Virus record (IMG/VR): IMGVR_UViG_3300024322_000001
Source of the DNA: a virus
Taxonomy: Duplodnaviria; Caudoviricetes
Direction: 5' to 3' (one strand)
Length of the DNA stretch: 64,000 nt
The notes below the pieces were generated by a model. That model was not told the DNA's origin, ran no database searches, and saw only the letters and a list, made by a program, of their open reading frames with translations. Shown piece by piece: positions 1 to 42,876 of the stretch. Every line of letters begins with the position of its first letter. Position 1 is the stretch's first letter. Made by a program: the position numbers and the translations under genes.

Positions 1-658
1 TGTTCATTGCTGCTGCAAGGTGTTGCCCAAATGAGTCCATAAGTACACGTTTCTTAGATAACCCTATTAATATAGCTATACTTCTATAACCATCCATAGC
101 TGCTAATGTATCAGGATATTCATACTGATCCTTTCTTTTTATATGAACAATTGAATAATCATTCTTATAATGCTGTACTAGGCTGTTTACTGTTATTTGT
201 GGAATATCTCTAGTCCAGGCGTATTTATATCCTTGTTGTTGTGGACCACCATTTGGCTGAATAACCATTACTGGTTTATCTGTTTTATAGAATGGAGAAT
301 AATATTCCTTTTCAGGTTCTGTTAAGTAGATTTGAGGCTGTTCGAAATTATAAGTAAGTCCGTAGATCCTACACCACGTCTTTAAGAGGTGTTCTTTTTC
401 AGTTAAAAATGAAGTATTACGGTACGGGTCTTCTACAAAAAGCTTACAGTCTTGATCTTTTACATACTTTAAGTACGCACCATTCATCTGCTCTATTCTG
501 TAACATTCATTAATAAGTGGATTATTAAGAAAGACATCAGGGTAAGCAGATACTACTACTATATGTGCGTTTTTATAGCGTTTTCTTATCACTTTAACTA
601 CTGCCGTAGCCATAATGCTTTTGCCTAGACCGCCGTCTATTTGAAATATGATATTCAT
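1..658 (-). CDS. GT9/heptosyltransferase-like glycosyltransferase (3'-truncated by window edge; not in ORF track)
   Basis: Hand translation from ATG at 658: MNIIFQIDGGLGKSIMATAVV...QPNGG...MDSFGQHLAAAMN. GGLG(D/K) start and DSxxxHLAAA are GT9-like motifs; frame stays open to base 1. Confidence 0.7.
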   Translation of the reverse strand, partial: MNIIFQIDGGLGKSIMATAVVKVIRKRYKNAHIVVVSAYPDVFLNNPLINECYRIEQMNGAYLKYVKDQDCKLFVEDPYRNTSFLTEKEHLLKTWCRIYGLTYNFEQPQIYLTEPEKEYYSPFYKTDKPVMVIQPNGGPQQQGYKYAWTRDIPQITVNSLVQHYKNDYSIVHIKRKDQYEYPDTLAAMDGYRSIAILIGLSKKRVLMDSFGQHLAAAMN

Positions 659-694
659 AAAACTTATTTAATTATAACTAATTTTAACTCTTTA

Positions 695-1003
695 CTACCA
701 AGGTGTACCGGTTGCTGTAGTTTCAGCTGCTATAAGTAGCTTATTGTTGTTGATAGATTCTACCAATTCAGCTTCAATTGCTGCTTTATCAACATTTGAG
801 TCTACCCAACCTAGTACATTACCCTCTGATAAGTCATCATAAGCAATAAATCCATCGTCAGATGCTGCACCTGTTAGTGTAAATTCTCCTATTTTTCTAG
901 CAGAGAAATCACCGTCGTTTGATTCGCATCCGTAAGTTACTTTAGTAACTACTCCATCTGCTTTGAGTCTTTCAAGATCGTATATTTTCCAAGTGTGTGT
1001 CAT
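695..1003 (-). CDS. Small tail-fibre-associated protein (paralog of 6547..6843)
   Basis: xWxIxxLxR...DG.V..V.Y...FI.[YF]xDLxxxxVLGW...xP[WF] pattern shared with 6547..6843; this type is common beside fibre genes of aquatic phages. Confidence 0.5.
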   Translation of the reverse strand: MTHTWKIYDLERLKADGVVTKVTYGCESNDGDFSARKIGEFTLTGAASDDGFIAYDDLSEGNVLGWVDSNVDKAAIEAELVESINNNKLLIAAETTATGTPW

Positions 1004-1024
1004 TGTAAGTGTGTTTTAATTTAT

Positions 1025-1032
1025 TATAAATA
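1025..1032 (-). promoter_or_regulatory. TATTTATA putative phage late-promoter motif
   Basis: One of 13 exact intergenic copies, always on the coding strand just upstream of a start codon. Confidence 0.6.
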
Positions 1033-1034
1033 TG

Positions 1035-1235
1035 CTATTTTTTTAATTTAGTTGATTTTACCCATAGTCTTTCAAATGAAAAGTAGCCTACTGTTTTTAT
1101 GACAGTATCTATGCTCCCAATAGCTAACCCGAATTTCCAATTACCGCTTACTATCCAGCCAGTAAGTATAGTTATCGATGTAGCTATAACTCTCCAAATT
1201 AAAGTCTTAACTATTGTTTCTTTATAACTTGCCAT
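1035..1235 (-). CDS. DUF2061-like small membrane protein
   Basis: KTLIWRVIAT...IDTVIKTVGYFSFERLW matches the DUF2061 pattern (KTxxWRxxxT ... YyxhERxW); the family is often linked to sulfate-activation genes. Confidence 0.7.
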   Translation of the reverse strand: MASYKETIVKTLIWRVIATSITILTGWIVSGNWKFGLAIGSIDTVIKTVGYFSFERLWVKSTKLKK

Positions 1236-1620
1236 CTTTTTTCATTTGTTCTCTAATCTTAGTAGCAGATATATTTTTTACTTCTTCAGGTGGGCAATGT
1301 TCTATAACGTCATATCCTACTCCTCTTCCTATATTGATTGATTCAATATCCGGTACGATAGTACATTTTACTCTACCTTGCTCTATCAAATCTTTTAATT
1401 CACGTTCTAAGTTAGTTAATACCTCCTCAGCAGTCCAAGGGTTTTTTTCGTCTGGTGGTATCTCTCTAATGGCTATCCATACGTTCTTACCTTCTTCTAA
1501 TCTTTGATCAATAAGCCATCTATGACCTGCATGCCAAGGTTGCCATCTTCCAATATACATTGAGTATTTATTCTCATTGAATGAGGACTGGAATGCTGCT
1601 TGTGCTAAATACTTTTTCAT
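1222..1620 (-). CDS. HUP-fold (cytidylyltransferase-like) nucleotidyltransferase; candidate minimal ATP sulfurylase
   Basis: GRWQPWHAGH (HxGH motif) and C-terminal ISATKIR; operonic with APS kinase. Confidence 0.7.
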   Translation of the reverse strand: MKKYLAQAAFQSSFNENKYSMYIGRWQPWHAGHRWLIDQRLEEGKNVWIAIREIPPDEKNPWTAEEVLTNLERELKDLIEQGRVKCTIVPDIESINIGRGVGYDVIEHCPPEEVKNISATKIREQMKKDGKL

Positions 1621-1955
1621 ATACCTTTATCTCTTTCTAAATTTATTGCAATAGCCCGTTCTCCAGGTTTCTTTGGATCCATATCATTGATTAAATAACG
1701 AGGGCCCCTTTCAATACCCATAATTAACCTATGGTACGGTACTTCATTTTCATATAATTCTATTTCAGTATGCATCCTAAGGTATTCAGGACGAGCTGTA
1801 GTTAAAATTATCATATGACCTTCAACTGAAGCTTTGTCTAAATATTCTATAGTAGATTTTATTCCTTCAGCTTTTGTTGTCTCATATGTTTCAAATTTAC
1901 GGTATTTGAATATAGTACCATCTATATCACAAAAGTATGTATTTTTTTTCTCCAT
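1617..1955 (-). CDS. Capless HAD-superfamily phosphatase
   Basis: FCDIDGTI motif I, LTTAR motif II, LIND motif IV. Confidence 0.75.
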   Translation of the reverse strand: MEKKNTYFCDIDGTIFKYRKFETYETTKAEGIKSTIEYLDKASVEGHMIILTTARPEYLRMHTEIELYENEVPYHRLIMGIERGPRYLINDMDPKKPGERAIAINLERDKGI

Positions 1956-1956
1956 A

Positions 1957-2454
1957 TTAGTTATCTAATTGATAATCTGAAGGTGGTAATTCATTTAGTA
2001 AAGACCCTTCAGGGTATTTTTTAGGTAAATTATTGATTATCTTTTGTAAAGATTCTTCAGGTGTATCGTCTGTAGTATCTATATCAATAAAATTACCTTG
2101 AGGGGCAATATACGCAATTGCTTTCCAATGGTCACGTTCTCTTGCTTCTGTTGTGTGAACATATATTTCTTTAATATTATCACCTAAAAGGGTTTTGAAA
2201 TCTTCTCTTTGATCCAAATAAGGTGCTACTAAAGAAACTATAACATCATTTCCTTGATTGTGTAGATAGTGAGCAATACGTTGAGCTGTACCTACATTTT
2301 CAACTCTACCTTTAATAGAGTAGTCTTTATTAGAGAATAATTCTCTCATATCATCTCCATCTATTCTAAAGGCATTAGGTGTGTAACGCTCTTGCAATAA
2401 ATCTCCTAAAATTGTTTTGCCAGCACATGGTTGGCCAGTTAACCAGTATATCAT
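1957..2454 (-). CDS. cysC: Adenylyl-sulfate (APS) kinase
   Basis: WLTGQPCAGKT P-loop, IDGDDMR, DYSxxGRxEN, VIVSLVAPY...R, EIYV: CysC signatures. Confidence 0.85.
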   Translation of the reverse strand: MIYWLTGQPCAGKTILGDLLQERYTPNAFRIDGDDMRELFSNKDYSIKGRVENVGTAQRIAHYLHNQGNDVIVSLVAPYLDQREDFKTLLGDNIKEIYVHTTEARERDHWKAIAYIAPQGNFIDIDTTDDTPEESLQKIINNLPKKYPEGSLLNELPPSDYQLDN

Positions 2455-2460
2455 ATTATC

Positions 2461-2491
2461 AATATAAGAATTATTTTTGAATTATACAACT
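2461..2491 (-). promoter_or_regulatory. Host-type (Bacteroidetes sigma70-like) promoter upstream of cysC
   Basis: Coding strand AGTTG-N20-TATATT; identical architecture at 6470, 46879 and 52063. Confidence 0.6.
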
Positions 2492-3807
2492 ATATCTCCT
2501 ACCTTAATTAACCAGCTCCCATCACAAAAAGTTTTGGTTGGTACTATATTAGTAGGACCATATCCTCCTATAAAGCCTTCTTTATTCATTGCAGGGAGAA
2601 TTGATTCAATTAATTTTTTAACATCTTGTCTTTTTCTATTATTAATATAGGTAAAGAATATATCTGAGAAGCTATCTATAATTTCTTCCGGAAGATTTGT
2701 AAGGTGGTTGACATTATTAAAACTACTTGTATTGTTGCTATAGGCAATTTTAATATCTTCCCAACTTAAATTATTCTTAATATTAAACTCGTCTTCACCT
2801 ACATACGAATCGACAGTGTATATGTTTTTAAACAGACCGCTACATCCGAAGAAAAAAGTTGACTCTCCGGTATGACTGTTTATTTCAATCATTTTAGAAT
2901 TTTCATCTGTAAAATTACCTATATGCTTTAGTAGATCTGATAGACCGAAGAAGCTATCTCTGTTAAATTTTTGTCGTCCGAAATTATACTTCTCTAATAC
3001 TATTTCAACATGCTGATCAATAATATCTTTTGGGTGTTTAATGTACTGAGCTATGCTCTTATTTATTACATTTCCTTCACTATCAAAAGAAATACCTATC
3101 TTACCGCCGCTTTCTCTATAATCGTTATAGTATGTATCAGAATCTGCATTTGCAGCATCTGCAATATCTGATTTTTGTCTTACTAGACTGTTAGAAAGGT
3201 TAATTATATTATGAGTATTGTAGAAAGTTTCTATATATACATCTGCAGCATACTTAACCGGTATACAGTTATCAGAAAGAGTCTTAATCATTTGCTTTGT
3301 AACTCCGTAGCAATGTGCACCGTTAAAATTAGTCCTGTATCTAGGAATTACAAAATTTTTAGATAGTATTATTCCATGTGATTGTTCAGTTTTTTTCCCG
3401 TACTGTACTATATCCCAGTCGATATCGTTCTGTTCTTTTAGTATTTCCTTGTATATAGGTGTTAGCTTGCTATTCTCTATAAAGGGAGTTACAAAGAAAA
3501 TATCGTCTTCTAGAAAAAGTGCATTTTCAACTCCATCCTTTAATGCTTGATCCCAAGCTTTTTTATGTGATAATGCGCAAGCGAAGATACCTGTAGTCAG
3601 CATACCAGTTGGATCAAAAAACGAACTCCCTACTAGACCTTGTTTTTGTAATTCTACTGTTGTTATTTCCTTACCGTCTACAGCTTCAATAAAAGTAAAA
3701 TCAATTTCAGGATTTTCCTTAATTAATATATCTCTTCTATCTTTTCTACGTTTTAAATTTATAACGTATATTTTATCAAATCCTAAAGTACTATTTTTTA
3801 AACTCAT
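2482..3807 (-). CDS. GT25-family glycosyltransferase fused to a degenerate class I SAM methyltransferase-like domain
   Basis: KIYVINLKRRKDRR, EAVDG, ACALSH..AW, LFLEDD are GT25 motifs. The C-terminal MIEINSHTGEST...TVDSY...GFIGG resembles Methyltransf_24. Confidence 0.75.
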   Translation of the reverse strand: MSLKNSTLGFDKIYVINLKRRKDRRDILIKENPEIDFTFIEAVDGKEITTVELQKQGLVGSSFFDPTGMLTTGIFACALSHKKAWDQALKDGVENALFLEDDIFFVTPFIENSKLTPIYKEILKEQNDIDWDIVQYGKKTEQSHGIILSKNFVIPRYRTNFNGAHCYGVTKQMIKTLSDNCIPVKYAADVYIETFYNTHNIINLSNSLVRQKSDIADAANADSDTYYNDYRESGGKIGISFDSEGNVINKSIAQYIKHPKDIIDQHVEIVLEKYNFGRQKFNRDSFFGLSDLLKHIGNFTDENSKMIEINSHTGESTFFFGCSGLFKNIYTVDSYVGEDEFNIKNNLSWEDIKIAYSNNTSSFNNVNHLTNLPEEIIDSFSDIFFTYINNRKRQDVKKLIESILPAMNKEGFIGGYGPTNIVPTKTFCDGSWLIKVGDIVV

Positions 3808-3808
3808 A

Positions 3809-4843
3809 TTATAACTCTCTAATTAGATTCTCATACTTAGAGTATATATTTTCATTACTTAACTCCTTTAAGTTACTTTCTTGGTCTGTAAGTAGTCTTT
3901 TCAGTATATCTAGTTTTGTTTTATGAAAAATATCTAAGGTATATTCTATTTGTTCAGGTTGATTAGAGATAACATATGGATAATTCTTTAAATACTCTAA
4001 TGCAGCGGAGTCTCTTCCTATTATAGGTACTAATCCGTTTAATAGACTCTTAAATGTATAGTAATCGAAGGTATCGTATACTGGGGTATATAGATATGCA
4101 GAATATTTCTTGAAATACTTATTTTCTGAACGTAGTCTTGCTTTAAAAGTAAATTTTGGTATAGTCTGTGTAACGTTGTTAATAAGAAATTGATTAAGAA
4201 AATCCGTTCTTCCGTGAATACCGTAATAGTCTAAACTTAAATTTTCATTCTTCCATATTGTATTTGCAGATATATGAATTCCATTAGCATATGACGGTAC
4301 TCCATTGAAAGTAAAATTTGTACCTTTAGTAACGTTGTCTAAATTTACTTTTAAACTTTTCTCACTACCTAGAGGCGGTGGTATAACTACTTTTTTAATT
4401 CCATCGGGAACTTTATAATAATCTTCAAATAGTTCCTTATCTCTCTTACTAAAGAATACAAATGCATCAGAATGTTTATAGTATAGGGTATTCTGCTTAT
4501 CATTAGATAGAGCTACAAATCCTTCCGAAAAAGAAGGTGCAAATTTCTCTAGACATTCAAGATTTAATTTTCTATGAACTTCTGGTATTGTGTCTATAAT
4601 AAATATTTTAGGAATCGTGACTTCCCTTAGAAACTCATGATACAGCCCTACACTACTAACTTTGTAATCAAAGCTAATAATTAAATGCGAGTAATTCTTA
4701 TTAATAGTATACTGAGCATTTACGTCCCTAAAGCTAAACGTATCTGCTTCAGTTATACCTATAGCTTTATAGATACTAGTAAAAATATTAGTTTCGTTTA
4801 TTAACCCTTTATTTTCATAATTTGTGACTACACATAACTTCAT
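3809..4843 (-). CDS. Divergent GT-B (GT4-like) glycosyltransferase
   Basis: SDAFVFFS, VVIPPP, YLYTPVYDTFDYYTFKSLLNGLVPII resemble the GT4 C-terminal motif region. Start MKLCVV at 4843 chosen to avoid overlap. Confidence 0.5.
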   Translation of the reverse strand: MKLCVVTNYENKGLINETNIFTSIYKAIGITEADTFSFRDVNAQYTINKNYSHLIISFDYKVSSVGLYHEFLREVTIPKIFIIDTIPEVHRKLNLECLEKFAPSFSEGFVALSNDKQNTLYYKHSDAFVFFSKRDKELFEDYYKVPDGIKKVVIPPPLGSEKSLKVNLDNVTKGTNFTFNGVPSYANGIHISANTIWKNENLSLDYYGIHGRTDFLNQFLINNVTQTIPKFTFKARLRSENKYFKKYSAYLYTPVYDTFDYYTFKSLLNGLVPIIGRDSAALEYLKNYPYVISNQPEQIEYTLDIFHKTKLDILKRLLTDQESNLKELSNENIYSKYENLIREL

Positions 4844-4856
4844 CTTACTTGCTGTA

Positions 4857-5600
4857 TTAAATTCCATCCCAGTTTTCATTTTCAGGTGATAGATGCACAC
4901 AGTAGCTATCTAAACATATAACCTGGTAGAATATTTTAGAAAATATCCAATCATCGTGGCCTGCATTTTTAGACATAGAAGGGTATAGGTGGTGTAAATC
5001 GGGGTATACATTTAATAGAGATGGCAAATGAAATAGTTGAAAATAACCATACCCTTTAAACTTCTGTACGATTTCGTCTGTTTTACTAAAATATTGCTGT
5101 GGTATGAATGGGTCAAAATCCTCTTCTTCGTTGACGTTGACTCTTCCCATCGTGTATAGGTTTAATGCTGAGAAGGGTTCGTCTAAATACTCTTCATATA
5201 AACGGTAATAACCTGTTCTTTCCATGTGTTCTGTTTCAACACATTTCAATTTTCTTAACCCTCTAATTTTTATTCTATTAGTCTCTTCATCAACAGGGAA
5301 AGCATCACTAAAGTTATCCGGTAGTAGTACGTCTGCGTCAATATGCAGATACCAATCGTTAGTGTACCCTAATAAATCAAATGCTTCGTTAATGGCTTCA
5401 CCTTTTGAAAATTGACGGTTATAAAGCTTTTCAGAAAATATATACTCTAGGTTATTATCTTCACACAGTTTTATAGTTTCAGTATCTTGCTCGGTAGTAA
5501 CTATAACCCAACGTTTAAAAAAACGATTATTTGCTATACAATACTTAAATAAATGTGCGTAGTTTACACACACAGTAACTGCGTATATATCTATATTCAT
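4857..5600 (-). CDS. GT-A (GT2-like) glycosyltransferase
   Basis: AVTVCVNY, FSKGEAINEAF, WYLHIDADVLLP (DxD), GYFQLF, DWIF. Confidence 0.7.
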   Translation of the reverse strand: MNIDIYAVTVCVNYAHLFKYCIANNRFFKRWVIVTTEQDTETIKLCEDNNLEYIFSEKLYNRQFSKGEAINEAFDLLGYTNDWYLHIDADVLLPDNFSDAFPVDEETNRIKIRGLRKLKCVETEHMERTGYYRLYEEYLDEPFSALNLYTMGRVNVNEEEDFDPFIPQQYFSKTDEIVQKFKGYGYFQLFHLPSLLNVYPDLHHLYPSMSKNAGHDDWIFSKIFYQVICLDSYCVHLSPENENWDGI

Positions 5601-5635
5601 AACTAATTTTTCAATAAACTTTTTTTACTGTACTA

Positions 5636-6463
5636 CTAGTACGTATTCCACTTAGAGTAGTCTAGATCAGGATAAAGTGCTTTGAGTTCATTAACACTAT
5701 CTTTAAAATAAGCCTTTAAAAATTGTTCAGAAGCTGTATCGATAGTTGTGTCGTAAGATGCAGAATGTATATCTCTATATTCTTTATCAAGTGCTAACTC
5801 ATCTACTCCTAAAAAGCTAAACATTTTATTATATTCAACTGCAGGATTAGCTTTGATTTCTTCCTGTATAGCTACATATACGTTTTCCGATCCAAAAGTT
5901 GCTCTATATTTCTTTAAGTTTTCTACGTATTTACTTCTAAGTAGAATAGAGTTTTTAGCTTTATCGTTAGAAACCTGTTCTGTACTTTCGTTGAAGGACT
6001 TTCCTTTAAATCTCAATGCAAAATTCGAATTTGGTCTTTGTATATGATTCCAATGGCTAAAACTTCTAGTGATAGGATCTCTAAGTATAACTATAATCTT
6101 AGGTGTTCCTAAAGTTAATGCCATGTTTTTAGCTGTGCTTTCTTGACCTTTTTCATGTAGGTAGAAATAATTTGGTGATGCTTCTCCTATTGCTTTGGTT
6201 GGTCTTGGAAAATAAGACTCGTATAAATCTCTACCTAAATTAAAATTATGTTCTTTATTAAAAAAGTCCATTTCTTTATTAGTCTCTTCACTTAAGCCTC
6301 CTACAAAGTCAGAAGGTTTATAATTATAATGTGCGTTTACTTTTTCCTTCCAGTAAGGCGTTACACAGAATACATCTTCGTGTAAATTTAAATTTATAGC
6401 AGCAGCAGAGGTGCTACCTTTCATTGCTCCTACTATTATAAAGTTTGGTGTGTTCTTTTTCAT
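5636..6463 (-). CDS. PAPS-dependent sulfotransferase (glycan sulfotransferase-like)
   Basis: PNFIIVGAMKGSTS (5'-phosphosulfate loop), KEMDFF, GEASPNY, IIVILRDPITRSFS (3'-phosphate motif), FLGV. Confidence 0.9.
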   Translation of the reverse strand: MKKNTPNFIIVGAMKGSTSAAAINLNLHEDVFCVTPYWKEKVNAHYNYKPSDFVGGLSEETNKEMDFFNKEHNFNLGRDLYESYFPRPTKAIGEASPNYFYLHEKGQESTAKNMALTLGTPKIIVILRDPITRSFSHWNHIQRPNSNFALRFKGKSFNESTEQVSNDKAKNSILLRSKYVENLKKYRATFGSENVYVAIQEEIKANPAVEYNKMFSFLGVDELALDKEYRDIHSASYDTTIDTASEQFLKAYFKDSVNELKALYPDLDYSKWNTY

Positions 6464-6469
6464 AATTAT

Positions 6470-6500
6470 AATATAATACTTTTCTTTTTAATAAACAACT
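6470..6500 (-). promoter_or_regulatory. Host-type promoter upstream of sulfotransferase
   Basis: AGTTG-N20-TATATT ending 6 nt before the ATG. Confidence 0.6.
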
Positions 6501-6525
6501 TTTAGAGTAATTTTTTTCTATATAA

Positions 6526-6533
6526 TATAAATA
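6526..6533 (-). promoter_or_regulatory. TATTTATA putative late-promoter motif
   Basis: Exact intergenic copy upstream of the sulfotransferase/GT operon. Confidence 0.6.
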
Positions 6534-6546
6534 GATAAAAATAACA

Positions 6547-6843
6547 TTAAAAAGGAGTTTCTTGAATTGATTGACTTGTTATTAATTTATTAATAGAAGA
6601 TGATAATTCTGTTTGGATAGAAGGAATATCAAAACTCCCTGTTATCCACCCTAAAACTATATCTTGAGTTAAATCTTCGAAAGGTATAAACCCGTCTTCA
6701 GATGCGGTCCCTGATATTTCTATGATGCCCCATTTTCGAGCTACAGATCCACTAACGATAGTATCATATGTGTATTCTACATCGTATACTAATCCGTCAG
6801 ATGCGTTTCTAGTTAAGTTATTTATGTGCCAGTTAAATTCCAT
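6547..6843 (-). CDS. Small tail-fibre-associated protein (paralog of 695..1003)
   Basis: MEFNWHINNLTR...GFIPFEDLTQDIVLGW...TPF; preceded by TATTTATA at 6848..6855. Confidence 0.5.
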   Translation of the reverse strand: MEFNWHINNLTRNASDGLVYDVEYTYDTIVSGSVARKWGIIEISGTASEDGFIPFEDLTQDIVLGWITGSFDIPSIQTELSSSINKLITSQSIQETPF

Positions 6844-6855
6844 ATTTTATAAATA

Positions 6856-7563
6856 TTATGATGTTACGTCGAGGTATACTTTAAATGTTCCTACGTTACT
6901 ACCGTAAGAAACAAAACTAAATTCTAAAGTATCAACTAATGCTGTGATTGGGCTTCGTAACCAGAAGTTATAGCCCAACATACTTCCTCCACTAGTTTCT
7001 GCATATACATGATAACCAGTTGATTCAACTGTTGTATCTACTGATGTACCTGTTCCTGAAGATGGAGGAATACTATTAGTTACATTCCACCTACCCCCAC
7101 TTGTACCTGTTCCTAACGAAGTCCAGCTTGCTCCACTATATGTACTGGTATTTGTTGTTGTTGTCTGCCATCCTGTTCTACTTTGAGATAAATCATAAGT
7201 AGTATTACCTAAATATATTGTTGCACCGATTTGAAAATCTCCTCGGTAAGAAGTACTCGCTGTACCGTTAGTATACTGTATTACTAATCTACCGTTTTTA
7301 CCATCGTAATCACTCAACGTAGAAATTTCACCATCACCTTGGAATATATCCCAAGAGGTAGTTGATGATAAATTTTGTGTATATAAAGCTGAGGATAATC
7401 CTAAAGGGATACTTGAGTACCCGTAAAATTCGGATACAGCATCTGGTGTTGATTTCCCAGCTGTACTGCTCATACTACGTAAAGATACGTTTGTACTCGC
7501 GGCACTTAGTTCTGTTCTAATTTGGCTAAAACTAAGCGGATTTCCTGCAGAGGGTAGAGCCAT
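6856..7563 (-). CDS. Fibre-tip adhesin with C-terminal MAM-like domain
   Basis: N-terminal MALPSAG.LSFSQIRTEL...SEFYG is typical of proteins following S74 fibres. C-terminal W...PSSGTG...GYHVYAETS...LRSP...LEF...YGSNVGTFKVY follows the MAM consensus. Confidence 0.55.
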   Translation of the reverse strand: MALPSAGNPLSFSQIRTELSAASTNVSLRSMSSTAGKSTPDAVSEFYGYSSIPLGLSSALYTQNLSSTTSWDIFQGDGEISTLSDYDGKNGRLVIQYTNGTASTSYRGDFQIGATIYLGNTTYDLSQSRTGWQTTTTNTSTYSGASWTSLGTGTSGGRWNVTNSIPPSSGTGTSVDTTVESTGYHVYAETSGGSMLGYNFWLRSPITALVDTLEFSFVSYGSNVGTFKVYLDVTS

Positions 7564-10500
7564 TATACTTTAGATTTAAGTTCGTCGATTTGTTTTTGCT
7601 GTTCTTTAATTGCTTCAATTAATAAAGGAACAATTTTTTCATAGTTAACAGCTTTATATCCATTATCTCTTGTAGTAACAGCTTCTGGTAATATTGATTC
7701 TATTTCTTGGGCTATAACACCTACATCTCTACCTGTATTACCATGTATTGTTTGTATTTCTTCTTTTGATAAAGATTTCCAGTCAAATGTATTACCTGAT
7801 ACTCCTATTACTTTACATAAAGCATTTTCAATAGGTTGAATATTTTCTTTTAATCTTCTATCGGAAGTAGCAAATGCTACAACATCGTTTGTCGCATCAA
7901 TTCTACCGGTTGTTGTATTAAGTGTTGTAGTACCCCCTACTTGTAAATGACATGCTACTGTGGCATTGTTCATGTAAGTAGTTTTTGTTGTAGTAGAAGC
8001 TAAACAACACCCTATAGCGTGAGAATAGTCGTGTTTAACACAGTTGCCTCGCCCGACTGTTGAAGCATAATCTGAGTGACATATATTGTTCATACAGCCT
8101 CCTAGAATAGAGGAATAATTAGAATTAAGGCAAACATTGTTGTACTCACCTCCTATTATGGAAGAAGCATATCCGGTGGCACGATTACAAAATCCTCCAC
8201 CGACAAAAGCAAGTGCTTGATCTTTAATTAAATTACATTTTCCGCCACCTATAGTACTAGCCAAGGCATTGCATATTCTGTTACAACATCCACCTGCAAT
8301 TGTAGCGCCACTGCAATTGCTTCCGCATATACAGTTTTGGATACCACCTCCTATTGTGTTCTGGGAACCATAGCTACAAGTATTTATAACGTTAGTAGAT
8401 CCTCCTGCTATTGTATTGCTAATATATCCGCATATTACATTACTATTTCCACCACCTATGGTATGGTAATTTCCAGCAGTAGAATTTTTAATTTGGTTAG
8501 CATTACCTCCCAGGATTGAACTCAAGTTTTGACATAATATACTATTACTACATCCTCCTGCTATGGTACCGGAATTAGACACTAAGATACAGTTAGATCC
8601 ACCTGAGCCTATAAATGCGAAGCAGGCTCCATCTATTTGATTTCGACAACCTGCTCCTATTATTGCATAGGCAGATCTTGACTCACTTTTAGGGTAATTG
8701 CAAGCTGTATCTAATATCTTGTTTTCATATCCTCCTACAATTGTTTGAATAGTTCCGAATTCCATTTTATTGTAACAACCTCCTCCTATAAAGTTTGCAC
8801 TACACATAGAACCGTTTCCTTTCACGCAGTTTAAAGTACCTCCTACAATTGTATTGTAGTAACCACCACCGGTGGAGATGCAGTTACAATTACCAGATGC
8901 GACTATACTTTGGTTACCGTTTATATAGTTTAAATTACCTCCGACTATGTTACATGAACCGAATGTTGAATTACCAGATGTTTTGTTAAGGAATACATTT
9001 TTATAATTAGCTACCACACAAATAGCAGAATCAAATGGTTCTGTACCTCCATATTCAAAGGTACATGAAGCAACTTTAACAGCTATTGTTTCATCATCAT
9101 CAGTCATTATCCCTAACTCCCCGCCGAAGTTATCATCACTGATATCGATTTTCCCTAAACCAGCATTATTGCATCCAAATTGACTACGATCTGCGAGAAA
9201 GTAGTTTCCTAGTGAATCTACACAGAAAGACTGACCGTCGTAAGTTAATCCTGATTCTCCTATAATACTAGTTGTCCCACCAGCAGTTAGTATCCTATTA
9301 TTAACTCCACCGGACATTGTAACTGTACCAGTACAAGTAGTAAACGCCGTTGAATTAAATGCATTTGAACCTAATTCTCTAGTTCCAACATCTCCACTAC
9401 TGTTAATCATTAATGAAGTTGCTTCTGAATTTTGTGCGGGTTGTAAGGCTATATTCAGCGCAGCAGTCACCAATTTCGTACCATCCCAAATTAATTTGTT
9501 GGTATTACCAAATGATGTAGTTCCGTTATAGAATGGAATATATGTAGATGTACCGTTACCAGTTAATGTACCGGTACAAGTAGTAAATCCGTAAGTGTTA
9601 TCCCAATTGGTATTACCATCTGTTATATACCCACATCCGTTAGCTATTTGATTGTTATTATTTGGTATATCAGAACTTATAGCAATTGTACCAGTTTGAT
9701 CAGGTAAAGTATATGTTCTATCTCCAGTTAATAGTCCTGCTAATAAAGTACCTTCGTATGCATCTGCGGCATTTCCTTCGAATACAACACCATTTGATGT
9801 CGATACAGTTTCTACATTATTAGTTGTTGTTGTTCCTGTTACAACTAAATCACCAGGTATAGTTACTGTATCGGTTGAATCACCAATTTGAACTGCGTTT
9901 GATCCAAAACCACCTGCTAAACGTATTTTTAAATTAGTAATAGAAACATCATCCACTTTCGTGTTACCTGCCAATGCTGTAGTAGATGTTGTACCTAATG
10001 TTAAGTTAGAAGTACCAGTACATGTAGTAAACGCTGTTGAATTAAATGCATTTGAACCTAATTCTCTAGTTCCAACTACATTTGAACCATTTATCATTAC
10101 AGCAGTTGATGCTGATGCTTGATTGGCTAGACCTGTAAGAGATAGAGTAGAGCTAATTGTATTAGTTTCTACATCTAAATTATTTACAAAAGTATAGTTA
10201 GATTTATCTGCTGTTATATCAGAACCTAAAATATGTACATTGGATTTGTCTGCACTAGAGTTATTAAAACCACCTGCTATACTACTAGAAGGGAGTATTA
10301 AACAGTTATTTTTACCTCCACCTATAAAGTTGTGGAGAGAACTTATATAGTTATCTTCACCTGTTACAATACCACTAAAACATGAGCTTAGGGTTATATT
10401 ATTACTACAACCACCTCCTATAAAACTACATGCTCCTGAGCCTGTGTTTAGCATACCGCCTACTATAGTAGCAAAATTACCGTTAGCACAGTTTTTACAC

Positions 10501-11534
10501 CCTCCTACAACAATTGTATGTCCACCATCGGTACCGCCGTTATAAGAAATATTGCAAGAACCTCCAGCTATAACATGCCCCTGATTAGTTGAAGAAACTA
10601 TACAGTTATTATACCCTCCTCCTATAACTGTATATCCTCCTGAGCCATGTATACTGTTATACCTACCGCCTCCAATAAAAGCATTAGTACTTGAGCATAT
10701 TTCGCTATCACGGCCTCCTGCTATTGAAGAAAAATCATCATATTGGATATTATGTCCTGAACCTATTTGTATATTTGTACTACCTGATATACCACCAGTT
10801 ACTGTTAAGCCTATACCTGGTGTGGTCATTGAATTAAATGAAGGGGGTAGAACATACAAACCGTGGGGAGAAAAGTTTGCAGTATCTATAAATACGTTAT
10901 TACATTCTTGTTTAAATGAAATATTACCTTTAGTTTGTCCTGAAGTAGCACAAGCTATTCTACCGTAAATAGCAGCATATAGTTTATTTGCAGCTGTACT
11001 TTTGCCCCAAAATTGAGCTGTTCCTAAAGTATCATTATCCGCTGGGGAAGCTGAATTTCTACAGAAAGTTAAATCTGGTGCAGAAGAAGCACCTGCGTCT
11101 GTAGAAGTTAATCTTAATAGATCGCCTGTACCTGTGTATGTTAAATCTAGGGTAGTACCATCATATGTAAAATTAGATGAACCATCTAAACTAGTAGTAC
11201 CGTTCCAAGTAGTTACTTGATTATTTACACCTGTGCCAGTTACAGTACCAGTACAAGTAGTAAACGCCGTTGAATTAAATGCGTTTGAACCTAAAGAATG
11301 ACGCTCTATCTGACCAGAAGTACTATTTCTTGTTAAAAAGTCTATGCTTGTATTAGCAGTCGAGTCTAGTGATGGTTCTGTACCTAAGGTAACTAGTCTC
11401 TCTAAATAGGTATCTCTTCCTAATTTTGATTCTCTTGAGTATATATCCTGAGCAGAATATATTCCTCCTGAAGATGTTATTTCGTTTAGTACCGCAGTAC
11501 TCCCTGAGGTAATTACTTTTTTCCAGTTTGGCAT
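7563..11534 (-). CDS. Long tail fibre with Cys-rich GG beta-helix repeats and C-terminal peptidase S74 chaperone
   Basis: SDRRLKENI...GVIAQE...AVNYEKIVPLLIEAIKE; many IGGGxxN repeats. Confidence 0.85.
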   Translation of the reverse strand: MPNWKKVITSGSTAVLNEITSSGGIYSAQDIYSRESKLGRDTYLERLVTLGTEPSLDSTANTSIDFLTRNSTSGQIERHSLGSNAFNSTAFTTCTGTVTGTGVNNQVTTWNGTTSLDGSSNFTYDGTTLDLTYTGTGDLLRLTSTDAGASSAPDLTFCRNSASPADNDTLGTAQFWGKSTAANKLYAAIYGRIACATSGQTKGNISFKQECNNVFIDTANFSPHGLYVLPPSFNSMTTPGIGLTVTGGISGSTNIQIGSGHNIQYDDFSSIAGGRDSEICSSTNAFIGGGRYNSIHGSGGYTVIGGGYNNCIVSSTNQGHVIAGGSCNISYNGGTDGGHTIVVGGCKNCANGNFATIVGGMLNTGSGACSFIGGGCSNNITLSSCFSGIVTGEDNYISSLHNFIGGGKNNCLILPSSSIAGGFNNSSADKSNVHILGSDITADKSNYTFVNNLDVETNTISSTLSLTGLANQASASTAVMINGSNVVGTRELGSNAFNSTAFTTCTGTSNLTLGTTSTTALAGNTKVDDVSITNLKIRLAGGFGSNAVQIGDSTDTVTIPGDLVVTGTTTTNNVETVSTSNGVVFEGNAADAYEGTLLAGLLTGDRTYTLPDQTGTIAISSDIPNNNNQIANGCGYITDGNTNWDNTYGFTTCTGTLTGNGTSTYIPFYNGTTSFGNTNKLIWDGTKLVTAALNIALQPAQNSEATSLMINSSGDVGTRELGSNAFNSTAFTTCTGTVTMSGGVNNRILTAGGTTSIIGESGLTYDGQSFCVDSLGNYFLADRSQFGCNNAGLGKIDISDDNFGGELGIMTDDDETIAVKVASCTFEYGGTEPFDSAICVVANYKNVFLNKTSGNSTFGSCNIVGGNLNYINGNQSIVASGNCNCISTGGGYYNTIVGGTLNCVKGNGSMCSANFIGGGCYNKMEFGTIQTIVGGYENKILDTACNYPKSESRSAYAIIGAGCRNQIDGACFAFIGSGGSNCILVSNSGTIAGGCSNSILCQNLSSILGGNANQIKNSTAGNYHTIGGGNSNVICGYISNTIAGGSTNVINTCSYGSQNTIGGGIQNCICGSNCSGATIAGGCCNRICNALASTIGGGKCNLIKDQALAFVGGGFCNRATGYASSIIGGEYNNVCLNSNYSSILGGCMNNICHSDYASTVGRGNCVKHDYSHAIGCCLASTTTKTTYMNNATVACHLQVGGTTTLNTTTGRIDATNDVVAFATSDRRLKENIQPIENALCKVIGVSGNTFDWKSLSKEEIQTIHGNTGRDVGVIAQEIESILPEAVTTRDNGYKAVNYEKIVPLLIEAIKEQQKQIDELKSKV
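9325..11294. repeat. Three near-identical 50-65 bp direct repeats (LGSNAFNSTAFTTCTGT) at about 9325-9389, 10012-10076 and 11245-11294
   Basis: gtaccagtaca(a/t)gtagtaaacgc(c/t)gttgaattaaatgc(a/g)tttgaacctaa seen three times. Confidence 0.9.
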
Positions 11535-11545
11535 ATCTTGTCTAT

Positions 11546-11594
11546 TTACGGTTGGCTACTGACTATTCAGTCCACTTCCCTTACGGGCCAATAA
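11546..11594 (-). ncRNA. Candidate structured cis-regulatory RNA (three-way junction) in the fibre-gene 5' UTR
   Basis: TTATTGG-[CCC GTAA GGG]-AAGTG-[GACT GAAT AGTC]-AGTAG-CCAACCGTAA; GC-rich island between TATTTATA (11604) and the ATG (11534). Confidence 0.5.
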
Positions 11595-11603
11595 TTAGTT
11601 TAA

Positions 11604-11611
11604 TATAAATA
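11604..11611 (-). promoter_or_regulatory. TATTTATA putative late-promoter motif
   Basis: Exact intergenic copy. Confidence 0.6.
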
Positions 11612-11634
11612 GGTAGTATAAGAGGAAAGTATTA

Positions 11635-11820
11635 TTACTTTTTTAACTGTTTAGACAGTTTTGTGAAGATAGAGTAAAACTGTTCAAATTCAGCTCCTGT
11701 AAATTGAGCTGTTTTCATTTTATCTAAAAGAAACTGGATTTCTTTCTTGGTTAGTTCATTATTAACGTTAGAAATAGTAGTTGTCTTTTTATGAATTAAT
11801 TTGTTGCTCTTGATTGGCAT
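11635..11820 (-). CDS. Small hypothetical protein
   Basis: 61-aa ORF filling the gap between fibre genes; LTKKEIQFLL...F.G.E.E helical pattern. Confidence 0.55.
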   Translation of the reverse strand: MPIKSNKLIHKKTTTISNVNNELTKKEIQFLLDKMKTAQFTGAEFEQFYSIFTKLSKQLKK

Positions 11821-11842
11821 AACTTATTCTCTAAGTTTAAGC

Positions 11843-11865
11843 AAGAAAAGGGGGCGTTAGCCCCC
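11843..11865 (-). terminator. Rho-independent terminator
   Basis: GGGGGC-TAAC-GCCCCC followed by TTTTCTT on the minus strand. Confidence 0.8.
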
Positions 11866-11911
11866 CGTTCCTGAATAAAAAATTATTTACTAGCAAAAAA
11901 ACTTGATAGTA

Positions 11912-13480
11912 TTACTCTGTGTAGATGTAAATCTCTCCACCATCTACTCTAATGTTACCATTCTTTCTATAAGCTGCAAGATCTGAAGTAACTACTGCTG
12001 AAGCATAAGCATCTGCTGTAATTGCTGTCTGTCCTTCAGTTGCTCCTGCTGCATCAAATGCCCATCTTTCTTCTGAGTTATCCCATCCGAAAGATACACC
12101 AGCTCCTTCTACAACTATACCACCATCGGCAGCAGAACCACCATCGTTCAAGTTGATGAATTGATCTGTTACATTTAAGTTAGTTACGTCAACAGTAGTA
12201 GTATCACCGCTTACTGTTAAATTACCAGTTACTACTAAATCGTTTCCGATAGTAATAGTATCGTTTGAATCTCCAATAGTTAGAGTACCTAAGTTAGCAT
12301 TAAGAGCGGCTTTTACGTTAGTAGTATCAGTAACGTCTGCATTATCTTCTACACCTGTTGCAGTTGAGTATGTACTGTTATCTACAGTATAAGTACCTGC
12401 ACCAGTTCTTTTCATAAATCCGTTGGATGTAAAATCTCCATCCATAATAGCACCTGCTGCTGCTACATTAGTTGCATCTGTTATATCTGCTAAGGCTTCA
12501 ATATTAGATAATTTGGATCTTTCTGTTGATGTGATAATTGCTCCTGAACCTACAGAACTAACATCTGATAAATCAGTTACACTCTCACCAGAAATATCTT
12601 GTAAAGCAGTATCTGCTCTACCACCTTGTGCTGCTGTTGCAAAAGTTGATTTATCTTCTATTGCTGCTGTTCCTAAACCTAAAGTAGCTCTAGCTGTTCC
12701 AGCATCTACATCATCAACTAAAGTTGCACCGAAAGTACTTACTTTAGATCCAGGAAAAGCATTATCTGCTTTAATTCCTTGTGCTGCAGTTGCATAGTCT
12801 GAAGAATCAAAAGATTTAACCTGTGCAAGGTTAGTTACTTCTGAATCCATTAATGCACCTGAAATATCTAAAGCTAAAGCTCCGGAAACTGCTGATAATT
12901 CTGCATCTGTTGCAAAGTTAGCATCTAATGAACCAGTGAAAGTATTTAATGCTCCAATCGAACCTCTTTCTGCTGCTGTGATTATTTGTCCTGAACCTGC
13001 AGAACTTACATCTGTTAAATCAGTTACACTCTCACCAGAAATATCCTGTAAAGCATTATCTGCTGTATTACCTTGTGCTGCTGTTGCAAAAGCTGATTTA
13101 TCTTCTAATGCTGCTGATCCTAAACCTAAAGTAGTTTGAGCTGCAGTAGCATTTGCATCATCAACTAAGCTAGCACCAAACGTCGATATTGTTGTGTTAG
13201 CTGGTAGAGATAATGTTTTAATATCTGCATCAACTTCTGTGTCCATTAATGCTCCAGCTGCTTGTACATTTGTAAAATCAGTTACGTCTGCGTTATTTTC
13301 AACACCTGTTGCTGTACTATAAGTACCGAAATCACTAATCTGTGATTCAGTAATAGTAATGTCACCTTCATGTGCGGTTACATCTCCTGATGTGACCGTA
13401 TAATCGGTTAAGTAATTTGCATCGTTAGCAAGCTGTGCAACGCCACTGCCTGAAACGATAATTTTTTTCCATTCTGCCAT
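11912..13480 (-). CDS. Fibre/whisker-like structural protein with internal duplications
   Basis: N-terminus MAEWKKIIVSGS resembles 7563..11534; duplicated ~70-aa TFGAxLVDD...ATAAQG...LQDISGESVTDL blocks; GNLTVSG...VTDQFINLN fibre motif. Confidence 0.7.
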   Translation of the reverse strand: MAEWKKIIVSGSGVAQLANDANYLTDYTVTSGDVTAHEGDITITESQISDFGTYSTATGVENNADVTDFTNVQAAGALMDTEVDADIKTLSLPANTTISTFGASLVDDANATAAQTTLGLGSAALEDKSAFATAAQGNTADNALQDISGESVTDLTDVSSAGSGQIITAAERGSIGALNTFTGSLDANFATDAELSAVSGALALDISGALMDSEVTNLAQVKSFDSSDYATAAQGIKADNAFPGSKVSTFGATLVDDVDAGTARATLGLGTAAIEDKSTFATAAQGGRADTALQDISGESVTDLSDVSSVGSGAIITSTERSKLSNIEALADITDATNVAAAGAIMDGDFTSNGFMKRTGAGTYTVDNSTYSTATGVEDNADVTDTTNVKAALNANLGTLTIGDSNDTITIGNDLVVTGNLTVSGDTTTVDVTNLNVTDQFINLNDGGSAADGGIVVEGAGVSFGWDNSEERWAFDAAGATEGQTAITADAYASAVVTSDLAAYRKNGNIRVDGGEIYIYTE

Positions 13481-13537
13481 GTTAAATAATTTTAAATTTT
13501 AATTGTTTTTTGTTACTATAATAAATATGTTATACTT

Positions 13538-14179
13538 CTAAATACCGAAATAAAAATTACCGTCAATATCTCTATACATCCCGCCATCTACCGGTGGTGG
13601 AGTTACTGATTGAGAAGTAAACACTAATACTCCATTTCCTTGAATTGAAAACATTTGTTTAGAACCTGAATTGATAGTTATCGGATCAGATGAACCGTTA
13701 TATTGGAATTCAATTGAACCGGTAACTTGTAAGTCGTTAGTTGTTGAATATGCTGAACCTGTTGCAGTAAATATACCGCTTGTAGCTAATCCATTAATTG
13801 CATTGATAAAGTGACTAGAGCCTGTGTCTAATGATAGAGTAGCAGCACCTGAATTTGCTCCTCCTGATAATCCGTCACCTGCAGTAACAGCAGTTATATC
13901 TCCTGATCCGTCGCCACCTCCTCCAGGCCATGCGAAACTTTCAAATGTATACGTACTAAATGGAAATGAACCGGCAATTACTAATTGGTATAATTCTTCT
14001 GTTCCATTAATATAGAAAATTTGACCATTCGTCAGCTTTCCTTTTAATGTAGCACTACCTGTATAAGCATTCATATCAGCTACAGTATCAACTGTCTGCC
14101 ATCCACCTTGTATTGCGGTAATGTCTGTTAACTTACCGCCTGTGGTTATCGCTATATCTGTACTAATGTTTATTGGCAT
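13538..14179 (-). CDS. Virion structural/fibre protein
   Basis: GDITAVTAGDGLSGG fibre repeat; G/S/T-rich; sits in the fibre cluster. Confidence 0.6.
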   Translation of the reverse strand: MPINISTDIAITTGGKLTDITAIQGGWQTVDTVADMNAYTGSATLKGKLTNGQIFYINGTEELYQLVIAGSFPFSTYTFESFAWPGGGGDGSGDITAVTAGDGLSGGANSGAATLSLDTGSSHFINAINGLATSGIFTATGSAYSTTNDLQVTGSIEFQYNGSSDPITINSGSKQMFSIQGNGVLVFTSQSVTPPPVDGGMYRDIDGNFYFGI

Positions 14180-14191
14180 ATTCTATAGGTA

Positions 14192-21542: not shown

Positions 21543-21568
21543 TACTTAAAGTTTTATATAAATAGCGT

Positions 21569-22290: not shown

Positions 22291-22298
22291 TATAAATA
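22291..22298 (-). promoter_or_regulatory. TATTTATA putative late-promoter motif re-initiating after the capsid terminator
   Basis: Immediately downstream of the terminator U-tract, upstream of phoH. Confidence 0.6.
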
Positions 22299-30049: not shown

Positions 30050-30078
30050 CTTATACGTTTACTATATATAAATATGCA

Positions 30079-42837: not shown

Positions 42838-42876
42838 ATAATATAAATTTTATATACGTATATAATTATAAATAGA

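Follow-up and report, generated by a model that had tools for sequence, protein, structure and literature searches.

A putative sulfated-glycan cassette beside the tail-fibre genes of a marine T4-like phage, with a candidate miniature ATP sulfurylase

Gene content and organization of the locus

The 64,000-nucleotide stretch of the virus record IMGVR_UViG_3300024322_000001 (Duplodnaviria; Caudoviricetes), hereafter the window, comes from a T4-like phage; its genes include those for the gp23 major capsid protein (22352-23935) and for long-tail-fibre proteins (7563-18685). The phage is marine with a genome of about 173 kb, and a recorded contig of 172,715 bp encodes a protein identical to its GT25 glycosyltransferase. 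Next to the fibre genes lies a block that combines putative glycosyltransferases (GTs), a sulfotransferase, a short adenosine 5'-phosphosulfate (APS) kinase and a 132-aa HxGH nucleotidyltransferase, for which we use NT as shorthand. We read this block as a cassette that would build and sulfate a short glycan, and NT as a candidate non-canonical ATP sulfurylase with which the phage could make its own 3'-phosphoadenosine 5'-phosphosulfate (PAPS).

The whole block lies on the minus strand, as do all its genes whose coordinates are given below, and is tightly packed from the fibre genes to the window edge, with neighbours that overlap or are separated by 1-36 nt. A scan for sigma-70 promoters and terminators gave no convincing terminator between the block genes and a result no better than that for shuffled sequences. 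The order of genes 3' of the fibre is a 235-aa protein, DUF7936 paralogue b, the sulfotransferase, a GT2-like enzyme, a GT4-like enzyme, a GT25 fusion protein, the short APS kinase, a HAD phosphatase, NT, DUF2061, DUF7936 paralogue a and a GT9-like enzyme. The initial annotation had described a contiguous run of sulfotransferase, GT, kinase, phosphatase, NT and DUF2061 genes that follows the fibre genes. Every gene named there was located, and the protein at 7563-11534 indeed matches Peptidase_S74 and long-tail-fibre PHROGs. Searches of each open reading frame (ORF) with HMMs and structures likewise pointed to the named families, tentatively for the GT4-like protein and least firmly for the GT2-like protein. 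At the DNA level, a search of phage genomes with window positions 1-8000 returned only short fibre matches.

Sulfotransferase and glycosyltransferases

Sulfotransferases require PAPS, which is made by ATP sulfurylase and then APS kinase. The predicted PAPS-dependent sulfotransferase of the block (5636-6463) matches the Pfam family Sulfotransfer_1 (PF00685) at 31.6 bits, above the gathering cut-off of 22. A profile built from seven homologues finds the bacterial sulfotransferase 3rnl in the PDB (2e-19), as well as the heparan-sulfate enzymes 3-OST-5, 3-OST-3A1, 3-OST-1 and NDST1 (1e-10 to 1e-17). Invariant among the seven homologues are K15 and T18 of the 5'-phosphosulfate-binding site (5'-PSB), R128, R133 and S136 of the 3'-phosphate-binding site (3'-PB), and E94 within GE(A/S)SPNYF. 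The roles of these motifs, namely a 5'-phosphosulfate loop K-x-x-T, a 3'-phosphate-binding R...S pair and a catalytic base, we take from general knowledge of heparan-sulfate sulfotransferases. Because the PAPS motifs are invariant and the profile matches heparan-sulfate enzymes, the protein looks like an active sulfotransferase of the carbohydrate (heparan-sulfate) type. A tblastn search revealed no relatives in cultured phages.

Four putative glycosyltransferases accompany it. The GT25 protein (2482-3807) matches PF01755 (E 7.5e-23, 81.9 bits against a cut-off of 24) over residues 11-191 of 441 only; its conserved C-terminal domain of about 240 aa (window 2482-3210) has no Pfam match and no sequence match in the PDB. 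Of 65 homologue clusters, which come from marine metagenomes, most keep this fusion, and one relative carries an additional PhyH dioxygenase domain. The adjacent 363-aa ORF (3809-4879), tentatively assigned a GT-B fold of GT4/GT1-like type, has no Pfam or PHROG match. In the ESM Atlas it reaches a feature score of 0.98, its ten best named matches are all GT1 or GT4, and its template-modelling (TM) scores to Glycos_transf_1/GT4 clusters are 0.73-0.80; all of these Atlas matches serve as leads. Its start is likelier the ATG at 4879 than the GTG at 4900; the Atlas record begins at residue 8.

The GT2-like (GT-A) assignment of the protein at 4857-5600 is the weakest of the four. Its match to Glyco_tranf_2_4 (E 0.018, 15.9 bits) is below the cut-off of 27.5, its AlphaFold2 (AF2) model is poor (pLDDT 50) with weak GT-A matches, and the fold search is not counted as evidence. 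An H-I-D-A-D (DAD) motif is invariant, and PF00535 is found on distant homologues. The GT9-like gene (2-658) is cut by the left window edge, beyond which it extends for about 218 nt; the window holds its N-terminal 219 aa, and full-length homologues measure about 292 aa. Neither the window fragment nor the homologue L014 has a Pfam match (PF01075). The fold was obtained from an AF2 model (pLDDT 87) of this 63%-identical full-length homologue (L014:9123-10001), not of the window protein itself, and Foldseek aligns that model with 3tov (3.5e-10, TM 0.69), WaaF 1psw (3e-8), WaaC 2h1h (3e-7) and TibC 4rb4 (6e-7). Clusters carrying PF01075 are among its Atlas neighbours. The GT9-like and GT2-like proteins have no sequence matches in the PDB.

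Kinase, phosphatase and DUF2061

The short APS kinase (1957-2454, 165 aa) belongs to PF01583 (E 2.6e-14, 53.9 bits against a cut-off of 21.1), all 20 of its sequence matches in the PDB are APS kinases, and it is about 35 aa shorter than canonical CysC. Across 26 viral sequences the P-loop (G7-T14), D32-G33-D34-R37 (DGDxxR), Y45, R50, N53 and an (S/A)PY motif are invariant and align to the canonical motifs; the arginine, asparagine and aromatic residues presumably bind APS, a role assigned from general knowledge. Against cultured phages, tblastn returned five weak matches.

The HAD phosphatase (1617-1955, 112 aa) keeps motifs I-IV invariant in seven homologues (D10/D12/T14, T52-T53, R83/R86 and N90-D91-D93). 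Specific HAD families of Pfam all score below cut-off, including a weak match to HAD_PNKP, and the sole PDB profile match is the phosphatase domain of Pnkp1, a polynucleotide 3'-phosphatase (E 1.3e-3). This relationship, together with a CysQ-like phosphatase that occupies a similar place in a Flavobacteriales cluster, suggests that the protein removes 3'-phosphoadenosine 5'-phosphate (PAP) as a 3'-phosphatase.

DUF2061 (1035-1235; PF09834, E 4.6e-18) is a small two-helix membrane protein whose domain has no assigned function. Sulfate-activation operons give it a functional context: in 80 bacterial loci, mostly of Flavobacteriia (L164-L243, e.g. L170:5001-5174), DUF2061 is followed directly by cysC (61) or cysH (11), cysD is present in 66 and cysN in 63, and in 66 of the 80, covering most Flavobacteriia sampled, DUF2061 is the first gene of a cysC/cysH-cysD-cysN operon. 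A short kinase of the phage type (43-46% identical) takes the position of CysC beside DUF2061-cysD-cysN in L182, L202, L203 and L219. In the phage module, NT takes the place that CysDN has in the host-type operon. Only one match, an uninformative one, came from a search for long fusion proteins with DUF2061.

A candidate ATP sulfurylase

Motifs and gene contexts mark the NadM-like NT (1222-1620) as a candidate for the first step of PAPS synthesis. Its invariant elements are GRxQxxHxGH, R52, GRGxGY and ISxT..R, the first and last of which read GRWQPWHAGH and ISATKIR in the window copy. In the PDB its profile matches nicotinamide mononucleotide (NMN) adenylyltransferases (NMNATs) over the N-terminal approximately 70 aa only, with alignments that end at residue 75-92 or so. 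The middle, NMN-binding segment of these enzymes is replaced in NT by the invariant Arg52 and the GRGxGY stretch, and NT misses the NMN adenylyltransferase family threshold (35.8 versus 127 bits). NT has no match to PF01747, the family of the Sat-type ATP sulfurylases, and neither the CysD nor the CysN fold. In a check of Sat, CysD and CysN signatures that comprised three strings and covered the window only, the Sat motifs QxRNPxHxxH and GRDHAG were absent from the six-frame translation, as were the CysDN strings SGGKDS and GSVDDGKST.

More than 516 relatives of NT are found in bacterial and archaeal genomes, and their neighbourhoods point repeatedly to sulfate activation. In L085, L108, L149 and L129 the gene immediately before NT encodes canonical CysC (TIGR00455, 250-277 bits; cut-off 138.7), and such neighbours are seen in Marinimicrobia, Flavobacteriales and other Bacteroidota. 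The two proteins are fused in a metagenome-assembled genome (MAG) of Saccharibacteria (L150:7422-8411). Fusions of the short kinase with NT occur in MAGs of Saprospiraceae (L112:7548-8333), Bacteroidetes (L117) and Nomurabacteria of the candidate phyla radiation (CPR; L124), and in another fusion from Saprospiraceae (L132) the kinase part matches more weakly. NT also adjoins CysH, an APS/PAPS reductase, in Nitrospiraceae (L128) and AprB/AprA in Pelagibacteraceae (L130-L163, e.g. L161:6362-6709). Further cellular clusters place it with Sulfotransfer_5, or with three Sulfotransfer_1 genes, a CysQ-like phosphatase and a flippase.

The distribution across genomes follows the same lines. In one Marinimicrobia family NT occurs in 20 of 38 genomes, always with an adjacent APS kinase (20 of 20; a twenty-first kinase lies at a contig edge), and searches for Sat and for CysD were negative throughout the 38. 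The test was made at family level, as a phylum-wide sample with NT in 3 of 101 genomes was too broad. Among 121 genomes of Pelagibacteraceae (SAR11), 41 carry NT and AprA, 6 AprA only, 12 NT only and 62 neither (Fisher p 5e-15), a statistic that ignores shared ancestry and overstates independence, the cellular genomes being mutually related and mostly incomplete MAGs or single-amplified genomes. Sat is present in 3 of the 47 AprA-positive genomes, and this rarity agrees with the report that most SAR11 lack ATP sulfurylase (10.1101/2022.09.23.509140). In some larger SAR11 genomes NT is located about 400 kb away from aprA.

Taken on gene content, the cellular distribution of NT has the pattern of an enzyme that fills the sulfurylase slot, and in the sulfite oxidation of SAR11 it is a candidate for the role of the "missing" ATP sulfurylase. 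NT is most likely a non-canonical ATP sulfurylase with which the module makes PAPS by itself; since kinase, NT and DUF2061 are each tied independently to sulfate activation in cells, the module is likely self-sufficient. Lying outside the Sat and CysDN families, NT would be a third kind of ATP sulfurylase. The strongest new point of this analysis is a PAPS supply that is probably both complete and non-canonical. The initial annotation undersold NT and DUF2061 here: they are most likely the missing first PAPS step and a sulfate-activation accessory, not bystanders.

Linkage of the module to sulfotransferases in viral contigs

Kinase relatives were found in about 190 viral contigs. From these, 83 loci were fetched, counts were made on 82, and 80 of the fetched loci contain the kinase. 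In 79 of the 80, NT comes right behind the kinase or is separated from it by the HAD gene; DUF2061 follows NT in 48 of 82 loci, and HAD separates kinase and NT in 22. The GT2-like gene adjoins the window-type sulfotransferase in all six loci with that enzyme (L001, L002, L003, L005, L009 and L015). Where enough flank is available, the kinase module lies at most about 5 kb downstream of this sulfotransferase in every case: in L001, L002 and L015 it follows the sulfotransferase/GT2-like pair immediately, and in L005 and L009 it comes four genes later.

Similarly, members of a Sulfotransfer_3 family immediately precede the kinase in 16 of the 18 loci where this family occurs, across several lineages, and hhalign identifies two more neighbour families as sulfotransferase-like (c82 with 95.5%, c44 with 69.8%). 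Altogether, 27 of 82 loci have a sulfotransferase-like gene no more than 7 kb from the kinase; among the 45 whose upstream flank measures 3 kb or more, 20 do. Often this gene lies directly upstream. In the fibre-to-sheath context, the PAPS module is repeatedly accompanied by a sulfotransferase and, in 14 loci, by a GT9-like gene. Other kinase neighbours include GT4, GT11 and GT9-like genes, carbamoyltransferases and prolyl-4-hydroxylase (P4H)-like 2-oxoglutarate (2OG) oxygenases.

Two further contexts were observed. In one phage lineage (L016, L019-L024, L034-L038), kinase-HAD-NT-DUF2061 stand among carbamoyltransferases, a QueC-like ATP-PPase and P4H-like 2OG-Fe(II) oxygenases, and these genes are sometimes inserted between the module genes; the arrangement suggests that the same product undergoes other tailoring reactions as well. 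Jumbo-phage contigs (L046-L083, up to 321 kb) carry a kinase-NT pair without DUF2061 beside an N6/N4 DNA methylase, a SET-DHH protein, DUF5856 and Nudix, with a GT11-like gene upstream and no clear sulfotransferase nearby. By hhalign, no sulfotransferase-like family was detected in the jumbo-phage (methylase/SET-DHH) or PDDEXK/GT4 contexts, and Pfam searches of whole jumbo-phage records gave borderline Sulfotransfer_1 ORFs only, elsewhere in the genome.

Proposed mechanism and acceptor

From these elements a route to a sulfated glycan can be drawn. NT would adenylylate sulfate (ATP + sulfate -> APS + pyrophosphate) in place of Sat or CysDN, and the short APS kinase would convert APS into PAPS. 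The heparan-sulfate-type sulfotransferase would then move the sulfate onto a sugar laid down by the GT2-like enzyme, its constant partner, and by the GT4-like, GT25 fusion and GT9-like enzymes. The inhibitory by-product PAP would probably be cleared by the HAD phosphatase, with DUF2061 as a putative accessory of sulfate activation. We give a probability of roughly 0.6 to the reading of the cassette as a set of enzymes that assemble and sulfate a short glycan and provide the activated sulfate themselves, and prefer a virion protein as its acceptor. The initial annotation had named virion proteins or the host surface as targets, with the idea that a sulfated coat might mimic algal polysaccharides to which Flavobacteria bind.

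The pointers to a virion target are the fibre-to-sheath position of the block, a motif shared with structural genes, the lack of a flippase, exporter or initiating transferase, and the existence of protein-glycosylating members in both GT9 and GT25. The motif reads TATTTATA in gene sense and TATAAATA on the plus strand, and the octamer is thereby the T4 late-promoter word TATAAATA in complementary orientation. As the initial annotation had noticed, it recurs within the block, where motif scans place promoter-like copies on the minus strand at 1025-1032 (upstream of DUF7936a), at 6526-6533 (63 nt upstream of the sulfotransferase start) and at 6848-6855 (preceding DUF7936b). The window holds 26 occurrences in either orientation against 14.7 expected, a number reached by 0 of 100 shuffles; 21 of the 26 read TATAAATA on the plus strand, mostly 5-95 nt upstream of minus-strand starts. 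It stands at this distance upstream of many minus-strand structural genes, for example at 21557-21564, 22291-22298, 30067-30074 and 42867-42874.

We take the acceptor to be most probably a virion protein, with the cysteine-rich distal fibre directly upstream of the block, or its small neighbours, as the leading candidate. This candidate fibre protein (7563-11534, 1323 aa) contains 51 cysteines (3.9%) in recurring (I/V)GGG-C-xN-xI and four-fold AFTTCTGT contexts, and a second fibre-like protein at 55034-58657 has 28 cysteines (2.3%) with (I/V)GGG-C-xN-xI repeats; most other structural proteins of the window have 0-0.4%. Fibre homologues beside DUF7936 and GT9-like genes in relatives contain 2.1-7.3% cysteine, and a long ORF with at least 2% cysteine is present in 9 of 14 GT9-like-positive loci compared with 4 of 62 others. 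The 235-aa protein behind the fibre gene (6856-7563), with 32% serine plus threonine and a MAM-like C-terminus, is another possible acceptor or a fibre-tip protein. The two interleaved fibre-associated paralogues mentioned in the initial annotation proved to be DUF7936 proteins (PF25590) that are 40% identical to each other: paralogue a (695-1003, 102 aa, E 3.1e-21) and paralogue b (6547-6843, 98 aa, E 5.1e-15). They flank the sulfotransferase-to-DUF2061 cassette, and in relatives DUF7936 comes behind either the fibre gene or DUF2061, as though it marked the cassette borders.

Several observations weigh against this proposal. The cassette is mosaic: neither GT25 nor the GT4-like gene was found in any of the 83 fetched viral loci. 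The four glycosyltransferases are therefore no conserved unit, as had initially been supposed, and of the co-occurrence expected among related phages the frequent association of kinase-NT with a sulfotransferase is the part that stood. More than half of the viral module loci have no sulfotransferase nearby, and of two viral records estimated to be complete, G130 has no Sulfotransfer_1 or Sulfotransfer_3 match and G126 a borderline one only. The kinase scores below the NCBIfam cut-offs for CysC (58.9 versus 127 for NF004041, 50.5 versus 138.7 for TIGR00455). The closest sequence relatives of NT are NMN adenylyltransferases, with no similarity to PF01747, one Nitrospiraceae genome (G004) carries both Sat-CysC and NT, and the relatedness and incompleteness of the cellular genomes bear on the associations described above. 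The cassette is probably expressed late, a timing for which the sequence motif is the sole basis, and the cysteine-rich repeat of the fibre may be purely structural. In sum, what the initial annotation observed was confirmed and its interpretation is partly supported. The most far-reaching version, in which the phage coats its own cysteine-rich fibre or a small fibre-associated protein with a glycan sulfated from self-made PAPS, and a third, miniature class of ATP sulfurylase serves both this PAPS synthesis and, as the "missing" enzyme, SAR11, streamlined Marinimicrobia and further microbes of the sea, is tentative, and we consider it less likely than not.

Alternative targets and products

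The same chemistry might instead act on the host, with sugars added and sulfated on the lipopolysaccharide (LPS) core or capsule, leading to superinfection exclusion or to progeny that do not stick to debris. We hold this to be improbable, if a serious contender. GT9 and GT25 are classically LPS-core families, WaaC and WaaF are among the top fold matches, and the bacterial CysC-NT modules occur in capsule or exopolysaccharide (EPS) clusters with a Wzx-like flippase, Poly_export and Wzi. The phage block, however, contains no flippase, polymerase, initiating transferase or exporter, and its glycosyltransferases have no membrane segments. It also lies between fibre and sheath genes and shares the motif of structural genes, and both families include enzymes that glycosylate proteins, TibC/AAH in GT9 and the collagen galactosyltransferases in GT25.

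A general auxiliary metabolic module is a second alternative: kinase, NT and DUF2061 would provide PAPS for cysteine synthesis in the host and merely lie beside unrelated glycan genes in a mosaic region. Its presence in about 190 viral contigs and at least four gene contexts, many without a visible sulfotransferase, would fit, as would the occurrence of DUF2061 in assimilatory cysDN operons of Flavobacteriia. We nevertheless consider it quite unlikely, given that sulfotransferase-like genes of four families (ST1, ST3, c82 and c44) abut the kinase in several independent contexts, and that the window-type sulfotransferase never appears without the module where flank is available. Moreover, neither in the window block nor in the annotated viral neighbour clusters does the module come with a PAPS reductase or a sulfite reductase. 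The earlier suggestion that cysC serves sulfation and is not a stray assimilation gene is supported by the module's proximity to sulfotransferases in phages and by its bacterial counterparts in sulfated-polysaccharide clusters.

Very improbable is a third possibility, that kinase, HAD and NT make a product other than PAPS, such as a nucleotide sugar made by kinase, phosphatase and adenylyltransferase in turn, like ADP-heptose, which would feed the GT9-like enzyme, NAD (nicotinamide riboside kinase plus NMNAT) or a PAPS-like cofactor of the kind in the Campylobacter Cj1415/Cj1416 phosphoramidate pathway. The kinase-HAD-NT order does mirror HldA-GmhB-HldC and is followed by a GT9-like gene, NT has NMNATs as closest solved relatives and NCBIfam matches, and HAD matches a PHROG named phosphoheptose isomerase. 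Yet the kinase is a P-loop relative of APS kinases with APS-binding residues and not a pfkB sugar kinase, the alignment of NT to NMNATs is confined to its N-terminal part without their middle segment, and the HAD gene is an optional member of the module, present in 22 loci. The cellular partners of NT are canonical CysC, CysH and AprBA, not NAD or heptose genes. Readings of kinase, HAD and NT as ADP-heptose-like, NAD-salvage, coenzyme A-like (phosphopantetheine adenylyltransferase, PPAT, plus dephospho-CoA kinase, DPCK) or Cj1415/1416-like pathways were rejected in view of these cellular gene contexts.

Barely credible is hypermodification of phage DNA by the glycosyltransferases and the sulfotransferase, in the manner of glucosyl-hydroxymethylcytosine-type systems: PHROG 2835, matched by the GT25 domain, is labelled glucosyltransferase, and phage glycosyltransferases glycosylate DNA in T4-like phages and others (Pyle et al. 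2024, as cited in PMC12619734), but the block is situated among structural genes and carries their motif, its sulfotransferase is closest to heparan-sulfate enzymes, and no hydroxymethylase or DNA-modification gene was seen in it. We know of no case of sulfated DNA.

Comparison with known systems

The cassette resembles, in content, bacterial clusters for sulfated polysaccharides and PAPS (cysDN or sat with cysC, cysQ, sulfotransferases and GTs; L149, L160 and L099), which likewise combine an APS kinase, carbohydrate sulfotransferases, a slot for a PAP phosphatase and glycosyltransferases. The same NT family adjoins CysC in such clusters of Flavobacteriales and Marinimicrobia. The phage version differs in having no flippase, exporter or polymerase, in its trimmed 165-aa kinase, in a HAD protein that replaces the CysQ-type phosphatase, and in its location in a virion-structure region. 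Sat-type ATP sulfurylases and bifunctional PAPS synthases (PF01747; the Sat-CysC protein 2gks and human PAPSS1) catalyze the reaction proposed for NT and show the same pairing or fusion with APS kinase. Both Sat-type ATP sulfurylase and NT belong to the HxxH nucleotidyltransferase superfamily. With 132 aa compared with roughly 350-400, no match to PF01747 and a position in the NadM/archaeal NMNAT branch, NT is not a member of the Sat family.

The glycosylation of mycobacteriophage virions (Freeman et al. 2023, PMC10527164) and of chlorovirus capsids provides a model for the preferred target, viral glycosyltransferases decorating the virus's own structural proteins. These systems involve no sulfation and no donor-synthesis module. 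The GT9-like fold matches TibC (4rb4, 4rap) at E about 1e-6, one of the bacterial TibC/AAH autotransporter heptosyltransferases, GT9-like protein glycosyltransferases that modify beta-helical adhesins, and the gene lies beside a long repetitive fibre as TibC lies beside TibA; WaaC, WaaF and 3tov match better, and identity is only 9-14%. Viral cysC and sulfotransferase auxiliary genes of the same Pfam families are listed as separate genes in the titles and abstracts of viromic surveys, and a linkage of viral cysC to NT, DUF2061, GTs and fibre genes was not found in these titles and abstracts. The literature searched likewise gave no description of a non-canonical ATP sulfurylase of this kind or of a sulfated glycan made by a phage.

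Implications for phages and marine microbes

A sulfated, polyanionic fibre or particle, if true, would change views on phage adsorption, on stickiness to algal and mucus polymers, and on the evasion of immunity or enzymes at sea. Should the 132-aa NT prove to be an ATP sulfurylase, a textbook reaction would have a third solution, and the routine annotation of NT as NMN adenylyltransferase and the sulfur-assimilation label of phage cysC would both have to be corrected. NT would further explain how SAR11 with APS reductase but no Sat completes sulfite oxidation, and where streamlined Marinimicrobia that carry CysC and sulfotransferases without Sat or CysDN obtain their APS.

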